Shown here: positions 49,592 to 62,871 of the stretch, one piece after another
Position numbering within the stretch: position 1 is the stretch's first letter
Layout: each line of letters opens with the position of its first letter
NCBI GenBank assembly: GCA_002477825.1
Contig: DLKT01000060.1
Span: 16,616 to 80,615 of the forward strand
Direction: 5' to 3'
Length of the DNA stretch: 64,000 nt
From: Bacillales bacterium UBA7581
Lineage (GTDB): Bacteria > Bacillota_I > Bacilli_A > RFN20 > CAG-826
Program-made: the position numbers and the translations under genes
The notes under the pieces: model-generated
Databases searched by the model: none
What the model saw: only the letters and a program-made list of their open reading frames with translations
Told to the model about the DNA's origin: nothing

Positions 49592-50359
49592 TTACTTCAA
49601 TTCAATCAATAATTCGGTAGATTTTCCTTTGGTGACTAAGAATTTTTCCGCATTAAAGAAATCTTGTGCTTTACGAACATGATAGTTTTTATAGTTAAAA
49701 TCAGGGAAGTTCTGATAGACTTTTTGCATTAATTGGCTCATAGGGTAAGGGCCATTGATGCTCTCTAAAATTTTAACTGCAAATTCTTCTACTTCTTCTC
49801 GAGTAGGAGAAACAATGACTGTTTCTTCTTCTGCTTTCTTCGTTGAAGCTTTACTACCTTTTTTCTTCTTTTTCTTCGCTTTTGTTACTTTATTCGCTGT
49901 TTCTTTTTCAAGATTTTCTTTTCCAAGAAGATCTTCTAAATAAAAGAAACGGTCACAAGCTTTTACGAAAGAAGAGGCGGTTTTCTTTTCTCCTGCTCCA
50001 ATAACGAAGATGTTGGATTCTTTTAATCTCTTCACTAGTCCCGTATAGTCACTATCGGAAGACATAATACAGAAAGCATCGACATTACCAGAATATAAAA
50101 TATCCATAGCATCAATAATGAGTTTAGAATCCGATGCATTTTTTCCTGTCGTATAGCAATATTGTTGAATCGGTGTAATCGCATAATCGTTCACTAACGT
50201 TTTCCAGCTATGGGAAGTATTACTCGTAAAGTCACCATACATACGGAAATACGTTACTTTTCCTAATACGTTTAATTCTTCTTTTAACGCTGTTAAATAT
50301 TTACCAGAAACGTTTTCGGTATCAATTAAAAGCGCAATTGTATAATCATAATTTTCCAT
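49592..50359 (-). CDS. NYN (PIN-like) domain protein with a C-terminal OST-HTH/LOTUS domain
   Basis: N-terminus MENYDYTIALLIDTENVSGKYL...VTYFRMYGDF (LabA/NYN). Lys-rich linker. C-terminus EEFAVKILESINGPYPMSQLMQKVYQNFPDFNYKNYHVRK (LOTUS-like). Confidence 0.55.
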   Translation of the reverse strand: MENYDYTIALLIDTENVSGKYLTALKEELNVLGKVTYFRMYGDFTSNTSHSWKTLVNDYAITPIQQYCYTTGKNASDSKLIIDAMDILYSGNVDAFCIMSSDSDYTGLVKRLKESNIFVIGAGEKKTASSFVKACDRFFYLEDLLGKENLEKETANKVTKAKKKKKKGSKASTKKAEEETVIVSPTREEVEEFAVKILESINGPYPMSQLMQKVYQNFPDFNYKNYHVRKAQDFFNAEKFLVTKGKSTELLIELK

Positions 50360-50371
50360 GATTTTCTCCCT

Positions 50372-52147
50372 TTATTCATTTTCAAATTGGAGGCGATATA
50401 AATTATAATAATATCCTTTTTCTTTTAATAAGGCTTGATGAGTGCCTTCTTCAATAATTTTTCCGTTTTGTAAAACAATAATTTTATCCGCATGTTGAAT
50501 CGTGCTTAAACGGTGTGCCACGATTAACATCGTACCCATATTCATCATTTTTTCTAATGATTGTTGGATTAATAACTCGGTTTCTGTATCGATATTCGCG
50601 GTAGCTTCATCTAATATGAGCATCTTTGGCTCATGAACCATCGTACGAGCAAACGATAAAAGCTGACGTTGACCAATCGAGAAGTTACTTCCTTTTTCTA
50701 ATACAGGTTCATCATATTTTAATGGTAATTTTTCAATAAATTGATTAGCACCAACAAAGGAAGCGGCTTTTTCAATCTTATCATTTGGAATATCATCATC
50801 GCGAAGTGAGATATTCGAGCGAATGGTTCCACTAAATAAGAAGACATCTTGTAACATTTGTCCAATTTGTTTTCTTAAACTTTGAATCTTCACTTTTTTA
50901 ATATCAATTCCATCAATGTAAATTGTACCTTTTTGTACATCATAGTTTCTCGTTAATAAAGATAAAATCGTAGTCTTTCCTGCTCCGGTAGCGCCCACAA
51001 ACGCAACCGTTTCACCGGCTTTGATGGTAAAGCTAACATCTCTTAAAATCCAGTTTTCTTCTTCATAAGCAAACCAAACGTGGTCAAATTGAATGTCTCC
51101 ATGAATCGGTGGCATTTCAATCGCATCTTTATCATCTTCATAGGATGGCTTTAAATCTAAAAGTAAGAATAGACGCTCACTCGCAGCAAAGGCTTGTTGA
51201 AGTCCGTTGACTTGGTCCGCTAAAGTTTGAATGGGTCCAAAGAATCTTCCTACGCATTCATAGAAAGACCAAATCACTTGTACACCCGTTTCCGTTGTTC
51301 CTAATTCGAGTTGATAAATGCTTACATAAATTAACGTAGCAATCGCACCAAAATATAAGAAAGAGATAATCGGTCTAAAGATAGCAAAAATAATATTTTG
51401 TTTCGACCTTGCTTTTACGACTTCTTCATTGACTTGAATGAATTCGTTTTCTTTTCTCTTTTCTTGGTGGAAAATTTGCGTGATTTTCATACCCGAAAGA
51501 TTTTCATTTAAGAAAGCATTCATAGAGGTGATGCTATGACGCACTCTCCGATAAGCTTTTTTTGAAAGGACGCGGTAAGCATAAGATAAGCCTCCTACCA
51601 CTGGAACAAAGATAAGCATATAAAGCGCTAATTGATAATTTAACGCTAGCATCATGGCAAATATGCCGAATAGCGAAAGAATGTTCTTTAAAAGATTAAT
51701 TAAAATATTCGTATAAAGATCATTAATCGCATTCGTATCACTTGTAACACGTGATACGAGTTTACCAATCGGTATACCATTAATTTGATCAATGGATAAC
51801 GATTCAATATGATGAAACACATCTTCTCTTAATTGATATACGATGGATTGCCCTGCTTTTTGTAAAATCATCGTTTCAAAATACATAAAGAATAAGCTAG
51901 TTAAAATGGAACCTAAGTAACCTATCGATAAAGCAAGAATAGTCAGATATTTCGTATTTTCAGGATGCGACAATTTACCAATAATTAATCCGGATAAATA
52001 AGGCACCATGAGCTCTAAAGCAATCACAAAAAGCATATAGATAATGGCTAAGATAAACTTCTTTTTATGGGGACGAATATAGGTAAGCGTGCGACGAATA
52101 ATTTCACTATCTTTCATCGTGCGTTCTTTTTTTACATCATTCATCAT
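50372..52147 (-). CDS. ABC exporter, fused TMD-NBD half-transporter (subunit B of a heterodimeric multidrug/lipid exporter)
   Basis: Six N-terminal TM segments. Walker A GATGAGKTT, signature FSIGQRQLLSFART (degenerate), Walker B LILDEATANID. Confidence 0.8.
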   Translation of the reverse strand: MMNDVKKERTMKDSEIIRRTLTYIRPHKKKFILAIIYMLFVIALELMVPYLSGLIIGKLSHPENTKYLTILALSIGYLGSILTSLFFMYFETMILQKAGQSIVYQLREDVFHHIESLSIDQINGIPIGKLVSRVTSDTNAINDLYTNILINLLKNILSLFGIFAMMLALNYQLALYMLIFVPVVGGLSYAYRVLSKKAYRRVRHSITSMNAFLNENLSGMKITQIFHQEKRKENEFIQVNEEVVKARSKQNIIFAIFRPIISFLYFGAIATLIYVSIYQLELGTTETGVQVIWSFYECVGRFFGPIQTLADQVNGLQQAFAASERLFLLLDLKPSYEDDKDAIEMPPIHGDIQFDHVWFAYEEENWILRDVSFTIKAGETVAFVGATGAGKTTILSLLTRNYDVQKGTIYIDGIDIKKVKIQSLRKQIGQMLQDVFLFSGTIRSNISLRDDDIPNDKIEKAASFVGANQFIEKLPLKYDEPVLEKGSNFSIGQRQLLSFARTMVHEPKMLILDEATANIDTETELLIQQSLEKMMNMGTMLIVAHRLSTIQHADKIIVLQNGKIIEEGTHQALLKEKGYYYNLYRLQFENE

Positions 52148-53895
52148 TATCGCTCCTCCATTTCTTTTTCTAATTCTTGGAGTTCGACCATTCTTCGATA
52201 TGTTTTGGAGGTTTCCATTAAAGTATCATGATCCGCAAAAGCTTCAATTTTTCCGTGGCGTAAAACTAAAATGCGATGGGCATGACGAACCGTAGAAACA
52301 CGTGACGCTACAATAATCGTCGTTTTGCCTTTTCTTTCTTCTTCAATATGACGAAGTATTTGTTCTTCGGTTTTCACGTCAACAGCGGAAACAACATCAT
52401 CTAAAATTAAAATCGTTGGATCTTTAATGACCGCACGCGCTAAAGCAATTCTTTGCTTTTGTCCACCGGATAAAGTTACACCTCTTTCTCCAGAAACCGT
52501 TTGATAGCCTTCTGGAAAACTTAAAATGTTTTCTTCAACTTCTGCAAAACGCGCTGCTTTTGATATTTCTTCTTCACTTGCATCCATTTTTCCAAATGAA
52601 ATATGGCTCGCAATCGTACCTGAAAAAAGGAATTGATCTTGCGGAACATATCCGATATCTTTTCTGATGACATCTAAAGAGATATCCATGATATCATGTG
52701 CATCAAAGAACAATTGATCTTTATCCACGTTATATAGACGTAATAAAAGTTGGACGAGGGTGGTTTTTCCACTTCCAATTTTTCCAACGATACCAATCGT
52801 TTCTCCTTTTTCAATGTGTAAAGAAATATCTTTTAAAGTAGGTTCAAGAGAACCGGGGTAAGAAAAATATAAGTGCTTCATGGTAATTTCACCTTGTAAC
52901 GGTTCTTGAAGCGCTCCTGGCGCATCCACAATTTCTGGTTTTTCTTCTAATAATTTAGCAATACGATTCAAACTTGCATTGCCTCTACTTCTTAAATTAA
53001 TGATTTGCGCAAGGGCAAGCATCGGCCAAATAATCGTGGTGAAATAGCCAGAGAATTCAGTTACATCTCCGGCATTAAAGTTTTGACCATTGATGACATA
53101 ATAGCCACCAATTGCCATAATTAAAGCCCCAATGGTATAAATTAATAAGTCAATCAAAATATCTAAAATTACGCCATACCGGACATAAGCAATGTTGGCT
53201 TTTTTAATATCTTGATTTCGATAAGAAAAAGAACGAAATTCTTGTACTTCTTTAACAAAGGCTTTAATAACCGAAATACCAGTGAAATTTTCTTGGGTAA
53301 AGTCACTTAATCTTTCATATGCTTCTTGGCACTCTTTTTGGCGTAGCTCCATTGCTTTTCCCACTACCCCACCTAAAGCCACTAGAACTAAAAGTGGAAT
53401 CGTTGCAACAATACTAAGCTTCCAATTCGATAAAAACATTTTTACAAATGCCATCCCTCCCAAGAAAAATGCATCTATCGTAAAGATTGTGCCATCGGAG
53501 ACCACTTGGGATATCATTTCTAAGTCGTTAGTAAAAAGCGCCATCAATGCTCCGACTTTTTGCTCTTGAAAATATCGTAAAGATAACTTTTCTGCATGCA
53601 AAAACATTTCTTGACGAAGGTCCGCCTCCACACGAAAACCTGCGCGTAAAATGGTAAGTCGCCACACAAACCGACCCAGAAAGATAAAAAATCCTATGAG
53701 TAATATATAAACCACTGGTTTCCATATCATTTCACTAGTAAATGTTCCTGTTACTTTTAATTGATTAATCAAATCTCCTAGAATTTCTGGCACCATTAAT
53801 TGCGCGTAATCGACTAAAATTAAGGCTAAAATTCCAGCAAGAAAAAGATACCAATATTTTTTATAGTAACGATTAATCCATTTACCAAAAATCAT
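52147..53895 (-). CDS. ABC exporter, fused TMD-NBD half-transporter (subunit A)
   Basis: Walker A GKIGSGKTT, canonical signature LSGGQKQRIALARA, Walker B LILDDVVSAVD. One-base overlap with the partner gene. Confidence 0.8.
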   Translation of the reverse strand: MIFGKWINRYYKKYWYLFLAGILALILVDYAQLMVPEILGDLINQLKVTGTFTSEMIWKPVVYILLIGFFIFLGRFVWRLTILRAGFRVEADLRQEMFLHAEKLSLRYFQEQKVGALMALFTNDLEMISQVVSDGTIFTIDAFFLGGMAFVKMFLSNWKLSIVATIPLLVLVALGGVVGKAMELRQKECQEAYERLSDFTQENFTGISVIKAFVKEVQEFRSFSYRNQDIKKANIAYVRYGVILDILIDLLIYTIGALIMAIGGYYVINGQNFNAGDVTEFSGYFTTIIWPMLALAQIINLRSRGNASLNRIAKLLEEKPEIVDAPGALQEPLQGEITMKHLYFSYPGSLEPTLKDISLHIEKGETIGIVGKIGSGKTTLVQLLLRLYNVDKDQLFFDAHDIMDISLDVIRKDIGYVPQDQFLFSGTIASHISFGKMDASEEEISKAARFAEVEENILSFPEGYQTVSGERGVTLSGGQKQRIALARAVIKDPTILILDDVVSAVDVKTEEQILRHIEEERKGKTTIIVASRVSTVRHAHRILVLRHGKIEAFADHDTLMETSKTYRRMVELQELEKEMEER

Positions 53896-54042
53896 AGTGT
53901 TCTCCTTTCTAGCAATATAAGTATTATACCAAAGTTTTCTTTGTTTTTTTCTTTAAATTGTATTCTTCTCTTTTTTAGGAATAATTTCTTTAAAACATAT
54001 TTGTTTTAATGTATGATTGTTGTGTATAAAGGAGGGCTGAAT

Positions 54043-54891
54043 ATGGAACCAAATAACCTAGTGCCCAACAATAATCAAGAAGAAAGTATGTATGTTGAAG
54101 TCGATAAAAATAAAAAATATTATCTTGTCGGATCAACCAATAAAAAAGACTCTATTTTGTTTAGATTATACTTTTTTATTTACATCATTTTAATTGCACT
54201 TTCCGTTGTTCTAGCTTTTGAATTAAAAAATGCGTTAGTGTGTATCATTCCCATCATTGTACTTTTTTCGCTCTATATTCTTTTTTTCGCAATCAAAGTA
54301 AAAAAAGATGAACAATATTTTCTGGATTTTATGAATGATCTTGATTATGAAAAATTAGAAAGAAATGTTTTAAATCTTCTTAGTAATGAAAAGATTCACC
54401 CCGAAACCAAAAATTATTATCTAATGAGACTCGTTACTTTTTCACCAAGTTATAGTAAGGAAAAGTATTTAGAATATGGAAATCAAGTGAAATGTCCTAA
54501 AAATAAATCTTATCAAATCAATTATGATCTGTTATCTTTTTCCAATAATATGACACTTGAAGAATTAGATCAACTTTATCATTTTTTGTCCGAGAAATAT
54601 AAGAAAAACCGACAAGTTTATAAAGCAATCCAATTAGAATATAAAATTCAAAAAGCCGTAATGCTCGGCGCTTCAGAAGAACCTATTGATCAATTACTTC
54701 AATCCGTTGGAAAAACAAACTATCAATGCGCTGTCCGAACTTATTTGTACGCTTTCTATTATGCGAACGCCCATGACAAGGAAAAATTCCAAAAATATTA
54801 CAATGATTTTATGAATCAATACGTTGTTTTAAAAGGGCTTGTTGAGAAATTAAACACTTTAAAAGAAGAAATAGAAAAAGAATCATTATAG
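54043..54891 (+). CDS. Hypothetical membrane protein (two TM helices plus a cytoplasmic helical domain)
   Basis: RBS AAGGAGGG 7 nt upstream of the ATG at 54043. TM segments LYFFIYIILIALSVVLAF and LVCIIPIIVLFSLYILFFAI. No known motif. Confidence 0.45.
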   Translation: MEPNNLVPNNNQEESMYVEVDKNKKYYLVGSTNKKDSILFRLYFFIYIILIALSVVLAFELKNALVCIIPIIVLFSLYILFFAIKVKKDEQYFLDFMNDLDYEKLERNVLNLLSNEKIHPETKNYYLMRLVTFSPSYSKEKYLEYGNQVKCPKNKSYQINYDLLSFSNNMTLEELDQLYHFLSEKYKKNRQVYKAIQLEYKIQKAVMLGASEEPIDQLLQSVGKTNYQCAVRTYLYAFYYANAHDKEKFQKYYNDFMNQYVVLKGLVEKLNTLKEEIEKESL

Positions 54892-54962
54892 ATTTTTTAA
54901 ATCATTCTAACGTTTCATTTTATCTTTATGATAAAATATAAAGTAACAAAGGAGTTGATATT

Positions 54963-56816
54963 ATGGCCACCGATTTATTAGAGCCACTATCCCTATATAA
55001 CAAAACATTAAAAAATGAGTTTCATCAACACGCTGAAGATTATTTCGATGAACTGATTCAAAAATCACAAGTAGATGTGGAAGGAAATAAGCTTACCGTA
55101 AAAGCTTATAAAGATGCTTTAGCAAAATTAGAAGTTGCTAAAAAGAAAATGTCAAAAACTCGTTCTTTAAAAGTTTTTCTCATTATTTTAACGGTTATCT
55201 TCTTTATTGTAACATTTATCTTTGCTTATTCTGCATTTACAACACCCGTTGTCTCTTTAATGGTAGATCTCATTATTGCCATCGCATCTTTGGGACTTGC
55301 TATTCTCATGATTGTTTTGTTGGCTAAAAAAATTAAGAAAAAATTAAAAGACCAACAAGCTGTCATTGATGAACTTACCAATACAGCCAATCAACGTTTA
55401 GCAGAAGCACAAGCACAAATGGCTTGTTTGAATCGAATTTTTGACTGGAACGCCCATGCTGAAATTGTTAAAAGGACGACAGATGTCTTAAAAATCGATC
55501 GTTACTTTGACGTTCAACGCTACCACTATTTACAAGAAAACTATGGTTTAGAAGACGAATTAGATGAACATATCTCCACCGATATGATTATGTCGGGTGA
55601 AATCGTCAAGAATCCTTTCTTGCTCGTTAGACAAGTAAAACAAACCATGGGTTCTAAAACTTATTATGGTACTTTAACCATTAGTTGGACCGAAACCGTA
55701 CGCGATTCTAATGGCAAGTCACATACTGTCACTAGAACACAAACCTTACATGCTTCCGTAATTAAACCAATTCCAGTTTATAATTACAACACTTTCCTCG
55801 TTTATGGAAATGAAGCAGCAAAGGATTTACACTTTACTCGTTCTCCCTCAGGAGCATCTGGGTTAAGTGAAAAGCAAATTGATGCCAAAGTAAAAAAAGG
55901 CATGAAAGCCTTAACTAAAAAAGCAAAAAAAGATTTAGCAAAAGGAAATAGTGGCTTTACCGCTTTAGGCAATGAAGAGTTTGATGTATTATTTGGTGCC
56001 AAAGACCGTGATAATGAAGTAGAATTCCGTTTACTCTTTACTCCTCTTGCGCAAAAATCATTACTTGAATTAATAAAAAACAAAGAGCCTTATGGTGATG
56101 ATTTCTATTTTGTAAAAGATGGACCATTGAATTTCATTACTTCTGTCCACTCACAAAACCAAGATTATTATGGAAATCCTGCTCGCTATATTTCTTATGA
56201 CTTAGAGGAATCAAAGAAAGCTTTCATTAATTACAATGATAACTTATTACAAGGCTTATTCTTCGATTTAGCTCCTGTCCTTTGCATTCCTTTATATCAA
56301 CAACATGAACCCAATGCATTTAATCCATATCCAACGTATTCACAAAACTTTACTAGTTATGAAATGGAAGTTTTATCGAATGCATTTGATCCTGACATCT
56401 TCAAACATCCTGAAACAGCGACTCCAGTTATTCTAAAATCTAATTTCCAAGAAAAAGCAGGTCTTGCTGATACGACCGTTATTAAAGCTTTCTCATTTAG
56501 GACTGAAGATAGATTGGACTATGTCTCTGTTTATGGTGGAGATGGGCACTACCATAACGTACCTGTACCATGGGAAGAATATTTACCTATTGATTATGAA
56601 ACACCTATGGTCATCAAAGGTTTTGAAGGCTCACGTGAAGACTTTAATGATTTATTAAATACTGCCGAATTCCAAGGTTTTATGCAAAAATATGTACGTG
56701 ATTCGCATATCATTTATCAAAGAGGTTTAATAGCTTTTATTATGAGTTCTCTCTATACTACAAATGCAGATGAAGAATTGACGAACTTATTAAAAAAAGC
56801 TAAAATAAATAAGTAA
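54963..56816 (+). CDS. Hypothetical 617-aa protein with an N-terminal coiled coil, a TM hairpin (residues about 68-120) and a large C-terminal domain of unknown function
   Basis: TM stretches LKVFLIILTVIFFIVTFIFAY and LMVDLIIAIASLGLAILMIVLLA. No recognisable catalytic motif. Co-oriented and tightly spaced with the flanking genes. Confidence 0.45.
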   Translation: MATDLLEPLSLYNKTLKNEFHQHAEDYFDELIQKSQVDVEGNKLTVKAYKDALAKLEVAKKKMSKTRSLKVFLIILTVIFFIVTFIFAYSAFTTPVVSLMVDLIIAIASLGLAILMIVLLAKKIKKKLKDQQAVIDELTNTANQRLAEAQAQMACLNRIFDWNAHAEIVKRTTDVLKIDRYFDVQRYHYLQENYGLEDELDEHISTDMIMSGEIVKNPFLLVRQVKQTMGSKTYYGTLTISWTETVRDSNGKSHTVTRTQTLHASVIKPIPVYNYNTFLVYGNEAAKDLHFTRSPSGASGLSEKQIDAKVKKGMKALTKKAKKDLAKGNSGFTALGNEEFDVLFGAKDRDNEVEFRLLFTPLAQKSLLELIKNKEPYGDDFYFVKDGPLNFITSVHSQNQDYYGNPARYISYDLEESKKAFINYNDNLLQGLFFDLAPVLCIPLYQQHEPNAFNPYPTYSQNFTSYEMEVLSNAFDPDIFKHPETATPVILKSNFQEKAGLADTTVIKAFSFRTEDRLDYVSVYGGDGHYHNVPVPWEEYLPIDYETPMVIKGFEGSREDFNDLLNTAEFQGFMQKYVRDSHIIYQRGLIAFIMSSLYTTNADEELTNLLKKAKINK

Positions 56817-56835
56817 GAAAGGAATTAAAAAAACT

Positions 56836-57516
56836 ATGGCAAATGAATTAGACGAAGTGAATGGCCCAGTTAGCGAAGAAGGTCGCGACGTTGCGGTTAT
56901 TCAAAAACAAATCCCTGTAAAAGTGGGTTGGGGATCCACATTCTTCCAAGTCATCCTTTGGGTACTTGGTATTATTCCTGGCTTAATTTTCTTGATTATG
57001 AAAATTAAAGCTAAGACCTATTTACGTCAATTACAACAAAAGATTCAACATGACGCATCTCAAATCGACAACTATCTTGAACAACGCGTTGTTATCTTAT
57101 CTAACTGCGCAAAACTTCTTGATAAAGCCATTGATTTAGATAAAGACACCTATACCACTATCGCCGCTGCTCGTTCAGGTATTAATCCAAATGGTGATGC
57201 CTCTAACGATGAAGCAAGAAATGCATTAGGCGGAGCTGTTGATCGTTTATCCACTCAAATTCATCTCGCTTTTGAAAATTATCCAGATTTACAAGCACAT
57301 AAAGAATTAGAGAAAGCAATGCAACAAAACGATTATCTCCAACGTGAAATCACCGCTGCTCGTGAAGTTTATAACGACACTGTCAGCCGTTGGAACCAAG
57401 ACATCTTTGCTTGGCCAACCAAGATGATTGCCGCTGCTGAATTAGGATATACTACTCGTATTCCATTCTCTGCTTCTAAAGAAGTCAAAGATAAAGCAAG
57501 AGACGTTTTCTTCTAG
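56836..57516 (+). CDS. LemA family protein
   Basis: N-terminal TM FQVILWVLGIIPGLIFLIM. C-terminal LemA signature AAREVYNDTVSRWNQDIFAWPTKMIAAAELGYTTRIPFSA. Confidence 0.7.
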   Translation: MANELDEVNGPVSEEGRDVAVIQKQIPVKVGWGSTFFQVILWVLGIIPGLIFLIMKIKAKTYLRQLQQKIQHDASQIDNYLEQRVVILSNCAKLLDKAIDLDKDTYTTIAAARSGINPNGDASNDEARNALGGAVDRLSTQIHLAFENYPDLQAHKELEKAMQQNDYLQREITAAREVYNDTVSRWNQDIFAWPTKMIAAAELGYTTRIPFSASKEVKDKARDVFF

Positions 57517-57520
57517 AAAG

Positions 57521-57574
57521 AAAAATGAGCCATCTTCTCCAATGGAGGGATGGCTTTTTTGTTGCTCATTTTTT
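57521..57574. terminator. Bidirectional rho-independent terminator between LemA (+) and the AraC regulator (-)
   Basis: Nested inverted repeats AAAAATGAGC / GCTCATTTTTT and AGCCATC-N14-GATGGCT, flanked by T-runs on both strands. Confidence 0.65.
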
Positions 57575-58402
57575 CTTATATTTTGAAGGAGATAAATGCG
57601 AATACTTTTTAAATTGCTTCGAAAAGTATAAAGGATCATTAAAGCCAACAGAATACGCAACTTCTTGAACATTTAAGCGCCCAGATAATAGTAAAAGACG
57701 GGCTTTCTGCATGCGAATATCATATATATATCGCGTAATTGTAAATCCAGTTTGTTGTTTAAACACTCTTGAAAGATATGCTTCGTTCATAAAGAAATGT
57801 CGGGCGATAGAAGAAGTATTCAATGTAGATCTAGTGTAGTTTTCATTAATATATGCGCATATTCTTTTAACCACAGTTTTGGTTTCTTGTTGAATTTCTT
57901 TTTTACCATTATTTCGTCTTCTAATAATTTCAAATAATAATTGATTGACCTTTGCAATAGCGATTAAATCATTTGATATTTCATCCATATTTTCTAAAAG
58001 TGAGCAAAAAATATCTTTTAGTTTTCCATCCTCGTCATGAAAAACCGGCGTATCTTTTGTAAATCCAGCTTTTTGGAAAAGCGTTTGCGCTGCTGAACCA
58101 TTTACCTCTATCCATAAATAAGTCCATGGATCATTTTGATTAGGAGCATAGGCAATTTTAGTATCCACGGGAATGAAAAACATATCGTTCTCTTTAATTT
58201 CATATTCTTGCCCTTCAATCTTAAAATATCCTTTTCCTTTTAAGCAATAATGGATCACGAAATGACTTCTAACCAAAGGCCCGATAGCGCCTTTTTCTTT
58301 TTTGCATTGTTCGTAACCCGCTACAATGACATAAAACTCACTTAATGTATTATCTAATACATATTTATAATATAGTGATTCCGTTAAAAACTTATATTTC
58401 AT
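57566..58402 (-). CDS. AraC family transcriptional regulator (cupin sensor plus HTH)
   Basis: C-terminal AraC HTH ICAYINENYTRSTLNTSSIARHFFMNEAYLSRVFKQQTGFTITRYIYDIRMQKARLLL. The ORF extends to 58471. The ATG at 58402 is preferred (RBS GAGGAAACAAGG). Confidence 0.75.
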   Translation of the reverse strand: MKYKFLTESLYYKYVLDNTLSEFYVIVAGYEQCKKEKGAIGPLVRSHFVIHYCLKGKGYFKIEGQEYEIKENDMFFIPVDTKIAYAPNQNDPWTYLWIEVNGSAAQTLFQKAGFTKDTPVFHDEDGKLKDIFCSLLENMDEISNDLIAIAKVNQLLFEIIRRRNNGKKEIQQETKTVVKRICAYINENYTRSTLNTSSIARHFFMNEAYLSRVFKQQTGFTITRYIYDIRMQKARLLLLSGRLNVQEVAYSVGFNDPLYFSKQFKKYSHLSPSKYKKK

Positions 58403-58545
58403 CCTTGTTTCCTCGAATAAATTATCCATAATTTTTTTACTATTTTCAATTACTAAGTAAAAATTTTCCATATTGCAGTAAAATTACGCCATTAAATGTA
58501 ACCGCTTTTATTTTCTATAATGAAAATATGAAAGGAAATAATTAT

Positions 58546-60477
58546 ATGAAAAAAAAGAAAAGTTTTGTGCTTTTAGCGTTATCTTTCCTTCTCGCGTCTT
58601 GCGGAAATAAAGTACCTACAAGCACATCGAGTAGTCAACCAACTACAACCCCAACTTCTACTTCTATTACTACTCCTTCAAGTAATAGTTCATCTTCTAG
58701 TGTAGAAAGAGAAAAGCCTCGAATTCTTCTAGAAAATGAAGTTACCGAAGTAACCTGTAAAGCCGGAGAATATCTTCGCTTACCTAAAGGCTTTGCCCGT
58801 GATATGGATCAAAAAGATATAAGTAGTTCTATATCCACCTCTCTTTTAGAAAATGAAGGAGCCACTTTAAATAATGGTTATTTTATCGCTTCTTTAGCGG
58901 GAACTTATCATGTTCAATATGCGGTTAAAGATCATTTAGATACCGAAGCGACTTTTGATTTGCCAATCAAAGTTACTTCATGGTATGAAAACACCTACGA
59001 TGTTGGCGCTTATGGGAATTTAAAGGAATTTGAAAATAATAAAGTCTATAAAGATGGTTTAGAAAATACCTCTGCTTTATTATCTTTACCTTCTAACGCG
59101 CAATTTGTTTCTGATGATCGTGCGATTGAAGGAACTTCATTATATATCGATTTCTCTAGTCGTAGCGGCGAAAGTAATGCAATTACATTACCCGGTCTTT
59201 CTAATTATATTCAACCAGGAAAATGGACTATTTCCTTTGATGTGAAAATGGTTAAAGGTATTGGTTTTTCTGATTTCTTTGTTGGTTATAAAGAAGCTTC
59301 TAATAGTGATAATCAACAAATTTCATTAGCGAAAGTAGCGTTTGGAGAAACAACTCGCGTTACTTATACTGGTGTATTAAATGTAGACACACAAAAAGAT
59401 TATACCTTCCAAATTTTTAAAATGAATAATGGATCTAATGCTATCAGCTTAGATAACTTTGACATTCGTTACGAAGAAGTAAGCTACACCTTCTATACAC
59501 CAACCGTTGAAGATTTAAAGAAAGGTGTTACCATTGATTGGAATGACAAATTCATGCCGATTACCTCTTCTGTTCCTCAAACGGTTTCGGAAATTGAATC
59601 GGATGCGGTTCGTCAAGAATTAGAAGCCTCCCCTGCTTTTGGTGAAACTTGCTTATATATGTATGGAACCGGAGATCATAACTTAACGGGTATTGAAAGA
59701 GATGTAGACCCAGACTATTTTGATACCTCTATGGTTTATAACTTTAAATTCACCTATTATGCAATGTCTGTAAGTGCTCACTATATCATTATCATCGATG
59801 GATCTGCAGATAATGTTAACGTAGCTTCTGGTTTCTTAAAAACTGGTTTAAATGAAGCAGACATTTCTTTCCAAGTACCTAAAAATGCTAAGAGAATTAC
59901 TTTCTATGGTACCTATGATATGTATGTTGGAAAAATGGAAATTTCTTTGACCAAATCTACCGTTAATTCTCGTACAGATACTTACAAACCAGCCAATGAT
60001 GAAATCATCAAAGAAGGCGGTTATACCTGGGATTATAGCGAAAATAACGCAATCGACTTAGGTGGATTCTTGTTTGCAGACACTGCAAGTCTTTCTTCGG
60101 AAATTCAAGAATCCATTCAAGGATTAACTTCTTTCTCTTCTCAAGTTATTAAAGCCGACTTTATTAATGGTGGCGGTCGTCAATTACTCAGTGTCGCTAA
60201 TGTCTTATCGTTAGACTATTCCTACACTTTATCCTTTGACGCCTATTGTGAAAGTGGTAAAACCGTCTTAGTTCTACTTTACGGAAATTCCCAAATTGGA
60301 AATCACTTCACAATGCAAAAAGCTGCTGTTAGTGGTCATACCAATGTCTACCACTATTCGGTAACCTTTACTCCAAAAAATGGAACAAATAATGATTTTA
60401 AAACCATTATGCTTTACCCACAAGCGACCTTTACTATGTATATCGGTAACATCACGCTGAGTGGTGTGAAAAACTAG
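58546..60477 (+). CDS. Hypothetical surface lipoprotein with a Ser/Thr-rich linker
   Basis: Lipobox LLASCGNKVPTSTSSSQPTTTPTS. About 600 aa of beta-rich sequence without catalytic motifs. Track start 58528, preferred ATG 58546 (MKKKKSF). Confidence 0.5.
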   Translation: MKKKKSFVLLALSFLLASCGNKVPTSTSSSQPTTTPTSTSITTPSSNSSSSSVEREKPRILLENEVTEVTCKAGEYLRLPKGFARDMDQKDISSSISTSLLENEGATLNNGYFIASLAGTYHVQYAVKDHLDTEATFDLPIKVTSWYENTYDVGAYGNLKEFENNKVYKDGLENTSALLSLPSNAQFVSDDRAIEGTSLYIDFSSRSGESNAITLPGLSNYIQPGKWTISFDVKMVKGIGFSDFFVGYKEASNSDNQQISLAKVAFGETTRVTYTGVLNVDTQKDYTFQIFKMNNGSNAISLDNFDIRYEEVSYTFYTPTVEDLKKGVTIDWNDKFMPITSSVPQTVSEIESDAVRQELEASPAFGETCLYMYGTGDHNLTGIERDVDPDYFDTSMVYNFKFTYYAMSVSAHYIIIIDGSADNVNVASGFLKTGLNEADISFQVPKNAKRITFYGTYDMYVGKMEISLTKSTVNSRTDTYKPANDEIIKEGGYTWDYSENNAIDLGGFLFADTASLSSEIQESIQGLTSFSSQVIKADFINGGGRQLLSVANVLSLDYSYTLSFDAYCESGKTVLVLLYGNSQIGNHFTMQKAAVSGHTNVYHYSVTFTPKNGTNNDFKTIMLYPQATFTMYIGNITLSGVKN

Positions 60478-60489
60478 GAGGAATTCATC

Positions 60490-62871
60490 ATGAAAAAAAG
60501 ATTGATTATATGTTCTCTTGCTCTTATTTCTTCTATTCTATCGTCGAATCCAGCGAAAAAAGTAAATGCTGATGTCAACTTAAATCCAATCGATGGAATT
60601 TATTATCAAGAAACCTTTGAAGATAAAACCGAAGTTCCTTCTGATTTAACTTTGATTTCTGGAAAAACAAATCTAACTGTTGAAGACGGAAAATTACATT
60701 TCTCTTATGATAGTAGTGGTTATAGCTTCGTTGCTTTACCTTTATCATTAAGTTCGTTAGGTAACTACACCATTGATATTCGTTATGCTTTTGGATCACA
60801 GGCCTCCGATAGTGGTCGTTTCTCCGCAATTGGCTATCGTGCAAATATCGATGATACCAAAGCTTTAAAAGAATTCTATTTAATGAACTTTAGAAGAGAT
60901 GGAAGAACGGCAAATGGCGCTCGAAATGCGGGGGGTACCTTCACCGCTGATGGAGGATTAAATAACGTCGGCGCACCCGAAGTCAACAAATACTATAACA
61001 TTAAGATTGTAGTGGATGGCGAAGTTGCCAAACACTATCATGAAAATGTTTTAGTGCAAACCGTCAATTTAAAAACCGATTCTAACTATCAAAAAGTTTT
61101 AGGCGCAAATGGTTATCGTGAAACAGGTGCTATCTTTATCGCTACAATGAAAACTGAATTCTTTGTGGATGAAATCACAGTTCGTCAAAATGAAAATGTG
61201 GTATCTCGTGATTATATGATGGATACTTATCACAAAAAAACCAATTTAACTAGAACTCCTTCTGTTTATAGTTCCATCAAAGATAACGCTGCATATACGA
61301 GTTTAAAGGAAGCTGCTGAAAGTAAAAAAATGCGTCCAACTGGTGTTATCATGAATTTCAATGATAATCTTAGTGTACTTGCTGATGATGGACAAATTTT
61401 AGGTACATTAGATGCGACACTTGCTTCATTCAATAAAGCGGTAATTCCTATGCTAAAAGCGGATAACGCAACACAAGCACAAAAAATTGCTGATTATGCA
61501 AAAGCCTCCAACTTAGTAGATGGTTTCTATGTTTCTAATCAAATGGAACTCATCCAACAAATGAAAACAGCTTATGCTAAATTGTCATCTTTATATATTT
61601 TACCCGATGACTTTACTTACTCTAAAGCAAACATCAAAACTTTAGTAGAAAATGCAAATAAAGCCAGTGTCCGTGCGATTCTTGTTCCTTCCAATTTTGA
61701 AGAAGAAGGCATCACCTATTTACAAAATCATATGATTACTGTCATGACGAAAGGCGAAACCGAAAATGAAATCGTAGAAGGCGTTCTTCATGGCGCAACC
61801 GGTATTTATACTGGAGATGTAAATTTAGCTTACAATACTTTTAACACCTTTAAAAAAGGCACACTTACAAGAAAGCCTAACGTTATTGGTCATAGAGGTA
61901 TGTTATCTTCTACTACTGTAGAAAACACACTTTCTGCCTTTAAAGAAGCTTTTGAAAAAGGTGCGAATGCATTAGAAATGGATCTTCACGTCACTTCTGA
62001 TAGAAAGATTGTTGTAAACCATGATGATAATGTAAATGGCAAGAAAATTGCGAATATGACTTTAGCGGAAGTTCAAGCCATCGATTTCATTAGAGGAAAT
62101 AAAGTTCATCATTTGTCCTCTTTAGAAGAAGTCTTTGATTATTTTAAAGATAAAGATGTCATGTTAGCGCTTGAAATTAAAATCAATAACCAAGATCTCA
62201 TTCCTCTCTTAAAAGAACTCTTTGAACAATATAAAGATACCGACATTCAAGAAAAATGTTTCTTCATCGGTTTCTACGATAAAATTAGTATGTTTAAATT
62301 AGTTCGTGAACAACTTCCAACCATGAGTATTGAAGTCTTCCCTTCTACGGGTGTAACCGTACAAAGCGCTATGAACTTAGCCACACAAGTCAATGCAGCC
62401 GTGAATCCAGATAAAAATATTATTCCTGAAAACTTCATTCAAGATATGCAAGATCGTGGTTATATGGTGAATACCTATACCTATAATGGCACACAAGAAG
62501 AATACATTGAACATTATATTGATGGATATTTCGGTTTAACAACTGATTACCCAAATTGGTCAATGAACTTCATTAGTGAAGTCATCAATCAAGAAATCAA
62601 CATTCCTGTTGGTGAAAAAAATGCAGCTTATGTACCATTAAAAGTAAAAACAAGAAAAGGTGAAATTAAAATCGTTTACTCTTTTGAAGCCACAAGTTCT
62701 GATATCGTTACGTTAAGTGATGGAAGAATGTATATGAAAGAAGCAAAAGACGTTGAAAGTCGTATTATTTATCATTTTACCATTGATAATCAATACGGAT
62801 ACTACATCTATTCTTCTCTTCTCACCATTCATGGTCAAGCCGTAAATATTCAAGATCCTTTTAACAAGTAA
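60490..62871 (+). CDS. Secreted multidomain protein with a C-terminal glycerophosphodiester phosphodiesterase (GDPD) domain
   Basis: Signal peptide MKKRLIICSLALISSILSS with cleavage near VNA-DV. GDPD catalytic region NVIGHRGMLSSTTVENTLSAFKEAFEKGANALEMDLHVTSDRKIVVNHDDNV. The N-terminal 440 aa are unassigned. Confidence 0.7.
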   Translation: MKKRLIICSLALISSILSSNPAKKVNADVNLNPIDGIYYQETFEDKTEVPSDLTLISGKTNLTVEDGKLHFSYDSSGYSFVALPLSLSSLGNYTIDIRYAFGSQASDSGRFSAIGYRANIDDTKALKEFYLMNFRRDGRTANGARNAGGTFTADGGLNNVGAPEVNKYYNIKIVVDGEVAKHYHENVLVQTVNLKTDSNYQKVLGANGYRETGAIFIATMKTEFFVDEITVRQNENVVSRDYMMDTYHKKTNLTRTPSVYSSIKDNAAYTSLKEAAESKKMRPTGVIMNFNDNLSVLADDGQILGTLDATLASFNKAVIPMLKADNATQAQKIADYAKASNLVDGFYVSNQMELIQQMKTAYAKLSSLYILPDDFTYSKANIKTLVENANKASVRAILVPSNFEEEGITYLQNHMITVMTKGETENEIVEGVLHGATGIYTGDVNLAYNTFNTFKKGTLTRKPNVIGHRGMLSSTTVENTLSAFKEAFEKGANALEMDLHVTSDRKIVVNHDDNVNGKKIANMTLAEVQAIDFIRGNKVHHLSSLEEVFDYFKDKDVMLALEIKINNQDLIPLLKELFEQYKDTDIQEKCFFIGFYDKISMFKLVREQLPTMSIEVFPSTGVTVQSAMNLATQVNAAVNPDKNIIPENFIQDMQDRGYMVNTYTYNGTQEEYIEHYIDGYFGLTTDYPNWSMNFISEVINQEINIPVGEKNAAYVPLKVKTRKGEIKIVYSFEATSSDIVTLSDGRMYMKEAKDVESRIIYHFTIDNQYGYYIYSSLLTIHGQAVNIQDPFNK

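Follow-up and report, generated by a model that had tools for sequence, protein, structure and literature searches.

The genes of unknown function that are needed for normal division of the genome-minimised cell JCVI-syn3A are a well-known open problem. One cluster of this kind, 0602-0604-0605, has been described in two studies (Pelletier et al., bioRxiv 10.1101/2020.10.07.326892; Breuer et al., eLife 2019). Normal morphology and division of JCVI-syn3.0 require each of seven genes (520, sepF, ftsZ, 527, 602, 604 and 605), and loss of 602 and 604 leads to pleomorphic cells with aberrant membrane vesicles. In the syn3A annotation, 0602 is a pseudogene of 1,763 nucleotides (nt) on the plus strand (367754-369517), and lemA (0604) follows one nt later on the same strand (369519-370188, 669 nt). 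The 0602 gene is frameshifted in syn3A and full-length in the M. mycoides group; its N-terminal part with two transmembrane (TM) helices is expressed, and the truncated product, which keeps only this part, stays required. The LemA-family protein 0604 is present at several hundred copies per cell. Genes for DUF2207 proteins and lemA have also been reported as neighbours. Here we describe three genes at positions 54043-57516 of a 64,000-nt stretch of DNA from Bacillales bacterium UBA7581 (GenBank assembly GCA_002477825.1, contig DLKT01000060.1, positions 16,616 to 80,615 of the forward strand; hereafter the window), the second of which belongs to the MAG1210 family and is directly followed by lemA.

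LemA is among the most widespread bacterial families without a biochemical function; none was established in the literature that we found, in agreement with an earlier note on the window that had been made from the sequence alone. That note treated the three genes as one uncharacterised operon, whose last product is LemA, and envisaged a membrane-associated complex, possibly in envelope stress or signalling. We analysed how far the three genes are conserved together, what their products look like and how they compare with the syn3A genes.

Results

Conservation of the gene pair

The three open reading frames (ORFs) lie on the plus strand: gene 1 (54043..54891) encodes 282 amino acids (aa), gene 2 (54963..56816) 617 aa and gene 3 (56836..57516) 226 aa. 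AAGGAGG stands 6 nt before the ATG of gene 1 at 54043, and AAAGGAG and AAAGGAA precede genes 2 and 3, respectively. Genes 1 and 2 are separated by 71 nt, and 19 nt lie between the gene 2 stop and gene 3. Co-oriented, closely spaced genes with strong ribosome-binding sites, as described in the earlier note, are thus present.

The three products were compared by tblastn with 85 related loci, 80 species-representative genomes among them. In 82 loci a full-length LemA homologue is located directly downstream of the gene 2 homologue on the same strand, and the remaining three (L029, L043 and L054) end at a contig edge within ~320 nt of the gene. Counted by species-representative genome, LemA follows in all 77 that could be assessed (77 of 80 in total). 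LemA starts a median of 19 nt after the stop codon of its partner (range 0-100 nt, 79 loci). LemA homologues of the related loci are 52-98% identical over their full length. Outside the closest relatives, LemA is better conserved (52-78% identity) than its partner (38-59%). Clustering of all ORFs of the 85 loci revealed no third conserved neighbour; the flanks vary. Gene 1 was found in L004 and L006 only, the two closest relatives, and is absent from 83 of the 85 loci. Judged by the condition that the earlier note had set, recurrence as a unit in other genomes, the three-gene claim fails and the two-gene claim passes. Judged from these alignments, the conserved unit is two genes, a MAG1210-family gene and lemA, widespread in Bacillota, and not three. 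Conservation of the middle protein with a LemA partner, on which the earlier note had built, is far stricter than could have been known from the window alone and does not extend to gene 1. In the literature searched we did not find this obligate pairing or its breadth in Bacillota described.

The product of gene 2 scored 600.2 bits against NCBIfam NF046000, the "MAG1210 family" (cut-off 275, E = 3.7e-180), and its residues 6-552 aligned to model positions 2-548 of 550. The last alpha/beta subdomain (residues 557-617) falls outside the model, which stops at about residue 552. NF046000 has been modelled and named without a described function, structure or literature, and a full-text literature search for "MAG1210" returned no paper. 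Gene 2 has more than 1,288 matches in a 90%-clustered protein database. The family comprises 1,290 clusters at 50% identity (E <= 1e-3), 665 of them with E <= 1e-30, and relatives are present in at least 561 genomes of a species-representative collection. Its members fall into a class of ~550-620 aa and a class of ~665-726 aa, the longer of which carries additional C-terminal sequence beyond the region that can be aligned to gene 2. The Pfam release used has no model for the family. One member (P0317) has a precomputed match to PF27081.1, an accession that this release lacks and which may be a newer Pfam entry covering part of the family.

The GC content of the loci ranges from 25% to 62%. Most of the hosts with a label are gut and rumen Bacilli (RF39-like lineages, Anaeroplasmataceae, Acholeplasmatales and Erysipelotrichaceae) and Clostridia (Christensenellales-like). 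At this locus the window is ~98% identical to L006, from Coprobacillus sp. CAG:826. Five contigs bear titles from outside Bacillota, namely Alistipes finegoldii, Paludibacteraceae, Prevotella sp. CAG:755, Parasutterella and Bacteroidales (L039, L052, L054, L061 and L013). These are probably mis-binned or mislabelled metagenome-assembled genomes (MAGs) and not true occurrences.

A search of 50,697 phage records and 72,556 plasmid records yielded no homologue of the family, and PADLOC-DB contained no matching family for any of the three products at E <= 1. Each related locus holds one family match, and there is none further within the window. The gene 2-LemA pair is chromosomal housekeeping rather than mobile or defensive.

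Architecture of the MAG1210-family protein

The full-length product of gene 2 was modelled with AlphaFold2 from 32 homologues, with a mean predicted local distance difference test score (pLDDT) of 91 and a predicted template modelling score (pTM) of 0.81. A model of residues 160-617 only, based on 51 sequences, reached 92.6 and 0.87, respectively. N-terminal helices, a TM hairpin and a domain of about 450 aa had been recognized in the earlier note, and the model reproduces this architecture. The N-terminal cytoplasmic helices (residues 1-68, 54963..55166, plus strand; modelled helices 8-35 and 39-93) contain a conserved LLEPL motif with an invariant P8. They are followed by the TM helical hairpin (residues 69-121, 55167..55325, plus strand), defined by the hydropathy scan and the model, with an external loop of ~5 aa. 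In the model, helices 39-93 and 96-159 form one very long hairpin, which is continuous through the TM tip (~69-121). The cytoplasmic helix after TM2 (residues 122-159, 55326..55439, plus strand; part of modelled helix 96-159) packs against helix 39-68 as a stalk.

The large cytoplasmic alpha/beta domain comprises residues 160-617 (55440..56813, plus strand; domain-only model). It contains two long beta-hairpins (217-282 and 502-553) with 25-30 residues per strand; an internal duplication of two beta-meanders was considered and rejected (hhalign probability 1.4%). The best-conserved core of the protein is residues 337-400 (FGAxDRDNEVEFRLLFTPLAQ...GDDF), with a mean majority fraction of 0.73. 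Across 51 sequences N217, R349, R356, T360, D379, D380, K385, H396, E467, E469, N473 and K492 are invariant.

Foldseek returned no match at E <= 0.001, neither for the full model against PDB and BFVD nor for the domain model against PDB. The best of the insignificant matches were to the long beta-hairpins in the stems of pore-forming toxins and to an MHC-like platform, with structural similarity (TM-) scores of at most 0.15. A sequence-profile search of the PDB with the gene 2 product found nothing. As modelled, the 450-aa domain has a fold without detectable relative among solved (PDB) and viral (BFVD) structures. The statement that the large domain cannot be matched was therefore right for Pfam domains and for these structures; at the level of protein families, the gene 2 product does belong to NF046000.

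Pfam scans of the gene 2 product and its 32 homologues gave only sub-threshold matches in the TM region. The TM hairpin matched PF20990 (DUF2207_C) weakly in 29 of 32 family members; against a gathering score of 33 bits, gene 2 reached 11.6 bits and one checked member 19.3, the best member had E = 1.2e-4, and all remained below threshold. A match of gene 2 to PF07332 (Phage_holin_3_6) was likewise below the gathering score (18.1 versus 28.4 bits). We noticed that NCBI gives the name "phage holin family protein" to one homologue cluster, P0360. This name is likely a misannotation derived from the sub-threshold Phage_holin_3_6 match, and it could spread.

Among the 32 homologues, the 15 residues on the N-terminal side of TM1 and the 15 on the C-terminal side of TM2 show a median net charge of +3 in each case; the ~5-residue loop that joins the two segments is uncharged. 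Because of these flanking charges, the positive-inside rule places both ends of the protein, including the 450-aa domain, in the predicted cytoplasmic orientation.

The LemA partner

Gene 3 encodes a LemA-family protein (PF04011, 75.9 bits versus a cut-off of 26.2, E = 3.7e-21), and the peptide AAREVYNDTVSRWNQDIFAWPTKMIAAAELGY, by which the earlier note had recognized the family, is present in its product. Besides LemA, a Pfam scan at E <= 1 gave three weak, unrelated matches only. Residues 62-214 aligned to residues 12-160 of PDB entry 2ETD (Thermotoga maritima TM0961, E = 1.7e-9). A weak match to NCBIfam MamQ was also observed (33 bits versus a cut-off of 250, E = 3.6e-8).

An alignment of 79 LemA partners revealed a conserved acidic N-terminal tail (residues 1-33, 56836..56934, plus strand) with the consensus MANxLDE..NGP...GR.V.VI.KQIP.K, which is N-terminal to the stretch matched by Pfam. 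It is followed by a single TM helix (residues 34-55, 56935..57000, plus strand), the hydrophobic stretch GSTFFQVILWVLGIIPGLIFLIM with KIKAK after it, and by a helical domain that is predicted to be cytoplasmic (residues 74-224, 57055..57507, plus strand; PF04011 positions 2-147 of 149). In the 79 partners the median net charge is -3 for the 32-residue tail and +3 for the stretch after the TM segment. Due to this difference the tail is predicted to be external and the helical bundle cytoplasmic. An external contact by the tail is a possibility, raised by the lipoprotein gene 0605 being required in syn3A.

With both large domains predicted in the cytoplasm and no sensor or kinase domain in either product, the suggestion of a role in envelope stress or signalling is not borne out. 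The only genetic evidence for a similar pair that we found in the literature, that from syn3A, appears to point to cell morphology and division instead.

Resemblance to syn3A 0602-0604 and a proposed role

The syn3A genes and the pair of the window share their layout. In syn3A, as in every locus that could be assessed here, lemA comes directly behind a longer gene of the same orientation, whose product has two TM helices near its N-terminus. This longer gene has about 590 codons in syn3A and 617 in the window, and the gap to lemA is 1 nt and 19 nt, respectively. LemA has 222-223 aa in syn3A, 226 aa in the window and a median of 222 aa in the related loci. The two regions also differ: 0602 is frameshifted in syn3A whereas gene 2 is intact, and a small lipoprotein gene (0605) comes after lemA in syn3A whereas a terminator comes after lemA in the window.

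The name of the family gives a further hint. We take MAG1210 to be a locus tag of Mycoplasmopsis agalactiae, and the family should therefore reach Mycoplasmatota. On account of the shared layout and this Mycoplasmopsis-derived name, we rate it as quite likely that 0602 is a MAG1210-family gene. Several searches for mycoplasmal members were carried out. When metagenomes were scanned for HxVPVxWxEY, with tryptophan read from TGA (genetic code 4), all 83 matches were due to chance and none was a family member. Homologue searches for Mycoplasma members returned only gut MAGs among the matches listed, and a search seeded with the shortest members only Clostridia MAGs among the matches listed. The cluster names of ten short family members were uninformative on a Mycoplasma origin, and a literature search for MAG1210, MMSYN1_0602 and related tags found nothing.

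We propose the following model. The products of genes 2 and 3 would be made together from one transcript. The MAG1210-family protein would be anchored by its TM hairpin and hold the 450-aa domain beneath the membrane on the helical stalk, and LemA would be a single-pass protein with its short conserved tail outside and its bundle inside. The two would assemble into a complex at the inner membrane face, in which LemA docks on the helix and TM-hairpin module of its partner. This docking site is a plausible lead, because DUF2207_C weakly matches the hairpin in 29 of 32 members, DUF2207 and LemA genes are reported as neighbours, and the truncated 602 protein, which keeps only this module, is still required. 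Most likely the pair would be the intact counterpart of syn3A 0602 and 0604; from this the role is drawn, namely that the complex keeps the shape or area of the membrane compatible with FtsZ-driven division, so that uniform daughter cells result. We give the whole chain, from a membrane complex that faces the cytoplasm to its effect on membrane shape in division, about an even chance of being correct. The wider claim, that the pair is an unrecognised, Bacillota-wide machine of the inner membrane face with an unsolved fold that controls membrane shape or area in division, is tentative and at present seems doubtful.

Gene 1 and the surroundings of the pair

In the product of gene 1, a TM hairpin (about residues 44-84) precedes a C-terminal part of ~195 aa. 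The hairpin is flanked by basic residues and is a membrane anchor of the kind found in gene 2. Only three homologues were detected in 5.8 billion proteins (95, 73 and ~60% identity), all of them 282 aa long. An alternative upstream ATG at 54013 would give a version of 292 aa; since all homologues have 282 aa and AAGGAGG is located 6 nt ahead of 54043, the latter was taken as the start. No match to the product was found in Pfam or PADLOC, and its single NCBIfam match, DltD, was far below threshold (19.5 versus 150 bits). Gene 1 is, by these searches, a real but lineage-restricted orphan outside the conserved module. In the spacer between genes 1 and 2 no terminator was detected by folding and no promoter match by a simple scan.

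Upstream neighbours are heterogeneous across the loci. In a relative with 59% identity in gene 2 (L005), the upstream slot is occupied by a 391-aa protein, which was considered as a gene 1 homologue and rejected as unrelated. In some other lineages, too, differing and unrelated membrane proteins hold this slot. ABC-type genes are found near the pair in 19 of 85 loci, in varied position and type. In at least seven loci (L026, L050, L051, L052, L061, L066 and L076) ffh is the gene immediately ahead of the pair and has the same orientation, with gaps from -4 to 58 nt. This linkage is a feature of one lineage (7 of 74 loci). In L026 (605-6528), ftsY, ylxM and ffh were confirmed upstream by Pfam and the gene preceding them was read as rnc from the sequence; in L050 and L066 the sizes of the upstream ORFs fit rnc-ftsY-ylxM-ffh. 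The adjacency to ffh may reflect a link to membrane-protein insertion, or mere local synteny.

In the window, a GC-rich hairpin at 57527..57556, with an A run ahead and a T run behind it, provides U runs after the hairpin on either strand and thus a two-way intrinsic terminator for both strands, between gene 3 and a convergent AraC-type regulator gene (57566..58471, minus strand). The fold energies are -19 kcal/mol on the plus and -14.7 kcal/mol on the minus strand (z = -3.7 and -2.9 compared to shuffled controls), and the clean bidirectional terminator of the earlier note is confirmed. Beyond the AraC-type gene, two large plus-strand genes encode a putative lipoprotein of 649 aa, whose L004 orthologue matches CBM_4_9 faintly, and a GDPD-domain protein of 793 aa. 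The genes from 57566 to 62871 look like a separate unit for carbohydrate or phosphodiester utilisation. Divergently oriented genes upstream (49592-53895, minus strand) encode two half-transporters of an ATP-binding cassette (ABC) exporter (591 and 582 aa) and an NYN-domain protein with a lysine-rich linker. The ABC/NYN arrangement is kept in L004, and ABC genes are also located upstream in L001.

Discussion

Several points weigh against the proposed role in membrane shape and division. The proposed orthology of 0602 draws on the order and size of the genes, the TM pattern and what the NCBIfam model is called, not on a sequence comparison. The syn3A phenotype comes from a wall-less, genome-minimised cell and may not extend to walled gut Bacillota. 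Transposon data class the genes of the syn3A pair as non-essential, and M. bovis tolerates a transposon insertion in its LemA gene. The physical complex of the gene 2 product and LemA is one that we infer. The DUF2207_C matches that bear on the docking site are sub-threshold and fall in the TM region, where composition alone can give matches. Finally, the invariant charged and polar residues (N217, R349, R356, D379, D380, K385, H396, E467, E469, N473 and K492) resemble a site of catalysis or ligand binding more than a passive scaffold.

Operons of lemA and htpX occur in streptococci. The pair could be viewed as an accessory of membrane-protein biogenesis or quality control that acts with the insertion or proteolysis machinery. 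The position directly after ffh in at least seven loci, with ftsY, ylxM and ffh confirmed in L026, would fit such a role, as would the up-regulation of lemA in a Flavobacterium columnare sppA mutant that has been reported in the literature. However, the ffh linkage is limited to a single lineage, neither product contains a protease, chaperone or insertase domain according to Pfam and NCBIfam, and the phenotype in syn3A is morphological. We regard this explanation as rather unlikely.

The dense invariant polar residues between positions 337 and 500 (R349 to K492 of the invariant positions given above, T360 included), together with the high conservation of the core, are what an enzyme or ligand-binding module would be expected to have. 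The 450-aa domain might act on a membrane-proximal substrate such as lipid head groups or nucleotides, with LemA as regulator or anchor. Yet no similarity to an enzyme family was detected with Pfam, NCBIfam, the PDB sequence profile or Foldseek, and the truncated syn3A 602 protein, which probably lacks the large domain, is still required. An enzymatic role is in our view unlikely.

A single functional complex of all three products, including the 282-aa protein, would agree with the co-orientation of the genes and the terminator-free 71-nt spacer, with the TM hairpin that gene 1 also encodes, and with the same place and length of gene 1 in the closest relatives. It is quite improbable in view of the 83 loci without gene 1, the three homologues found anywhere, and the heterogeneous upstream neighbours, among them the unrelated 391-aa protein at 59% gene 2 identity.

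Very improbable, too, is an anti-phage or holin-like system that disrupts membranes, with a 2-TM effector and pore-forming amphipathic beta-hairpins. The TM region weakly matches the Phage_holin_3_6 and SLATT models, one homologue cluster bears the holin name at NCBI, and toxin beta-hairpin stems are among the best, though insignificant, Foldseek matches. All of these matches are below cut-off, for Phage_holin_3_6 by some ten bits (18.1 versus 28.4), and the protein, at 617 aa, is not small as a holin would be. The lack of a PADLOC match and of phage or plasmid copies, the single family match per locus with none elsewhere in the window, the occurrence in at least 561 genomes beside housekeeping neighbours and the strict pairing with a highly conserved LemA all argue in the same direction. 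Around the pair we saw no defence islands and no sign of toxic or phage-triggered expression.

In the mycoplasma literature, LemA (PF04011) has been equated with the Pseudomonas LemA/GacS kinase (bioRxiv 10.1101/2020.10.07.326892; PMC9483919; PMC4398514). That gene 3 encodes such a two-component sensor, for which only the shared name speaks, is refuted by its domain content and can be set aside: the protein has 226 aa, PF04011 is its sole significant Pfam match, no histidine-kinase family (HisKA, HATPase_c) appears at E <= 1, and it matches the helical T. maritima protein 2ETD. It is a Listeria protein that gave the Pfam LemA family its name, and not the Pseudomonas kinase. The equation resembles a name collision, and a recurring statement of the mycoplasma literature is thereby corrected.

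If a membrane-shaping complex of the MAG1210-family protein and LemA is indeed formed, it would provide a first molecular identity for two syn3A genes of unknown function that are needed for normal division, and LemA, a very widespread orphan family, would gain its first defined partner and role. If the orthology to 0602 is true, the window gives an intact, full-length version of a gene that is frameshifted in syn3A, and the rule that the partner gene is followed by lemA defines a two-protein unit over more than 1,000 lineages. Confident structure models and invariant residues to mutate would then allow specific, testable hypotheses. Both conserved genes come from catalogued yet uncharacterised families, and the locus is ordinary for its family. 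New with respect to the literature searched are the 450-aa domain without a relative of solved structure and the probable identity of the pair with syn3A 0602/0604.

Apart from the syn3A genes, four described systems can be compared with the pair. MamQ is a LemA-like magnetosome protein to whose model the LemA domain of gene 3 is weakly similar. It is a precedent for a LemA-type protein in membrane shaping, and two papers on magnetosome membrane formation (PMC4902198, PMC3905215) reportedly mention LemA. In contrast to MamQ, gene 3 is far below the equivalog cut-off and has no magnetosome context, and the partners of MamQ are unrelated. The DUF2207-LemA pairs (PF09972/PF20990 beside PF04011) resemble the pair of the window in that lemA has as its neighbour the gene of a larger membrane protein that contains a TM hairpin. 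Gene 2 differs in having no PF09972 match and only the sub-threshold PF20990 match (11.6 versus 33 bits). The large domain of DUF2207 lies outside the cell, whereas that of gene 2 is predicted inside. With the LemA family (PF04011, 2ETD) gene 3 shares the single N-terminal TM segment followed by a helical domain; its subfamily adds the conserved acidic tail of ~33 aa (MANxLDE...) before the TM segment and keeps 52-78% identity across distant Bacillota. Gene 2, finally, is a member of NF046000, whose model it matches from end to end.

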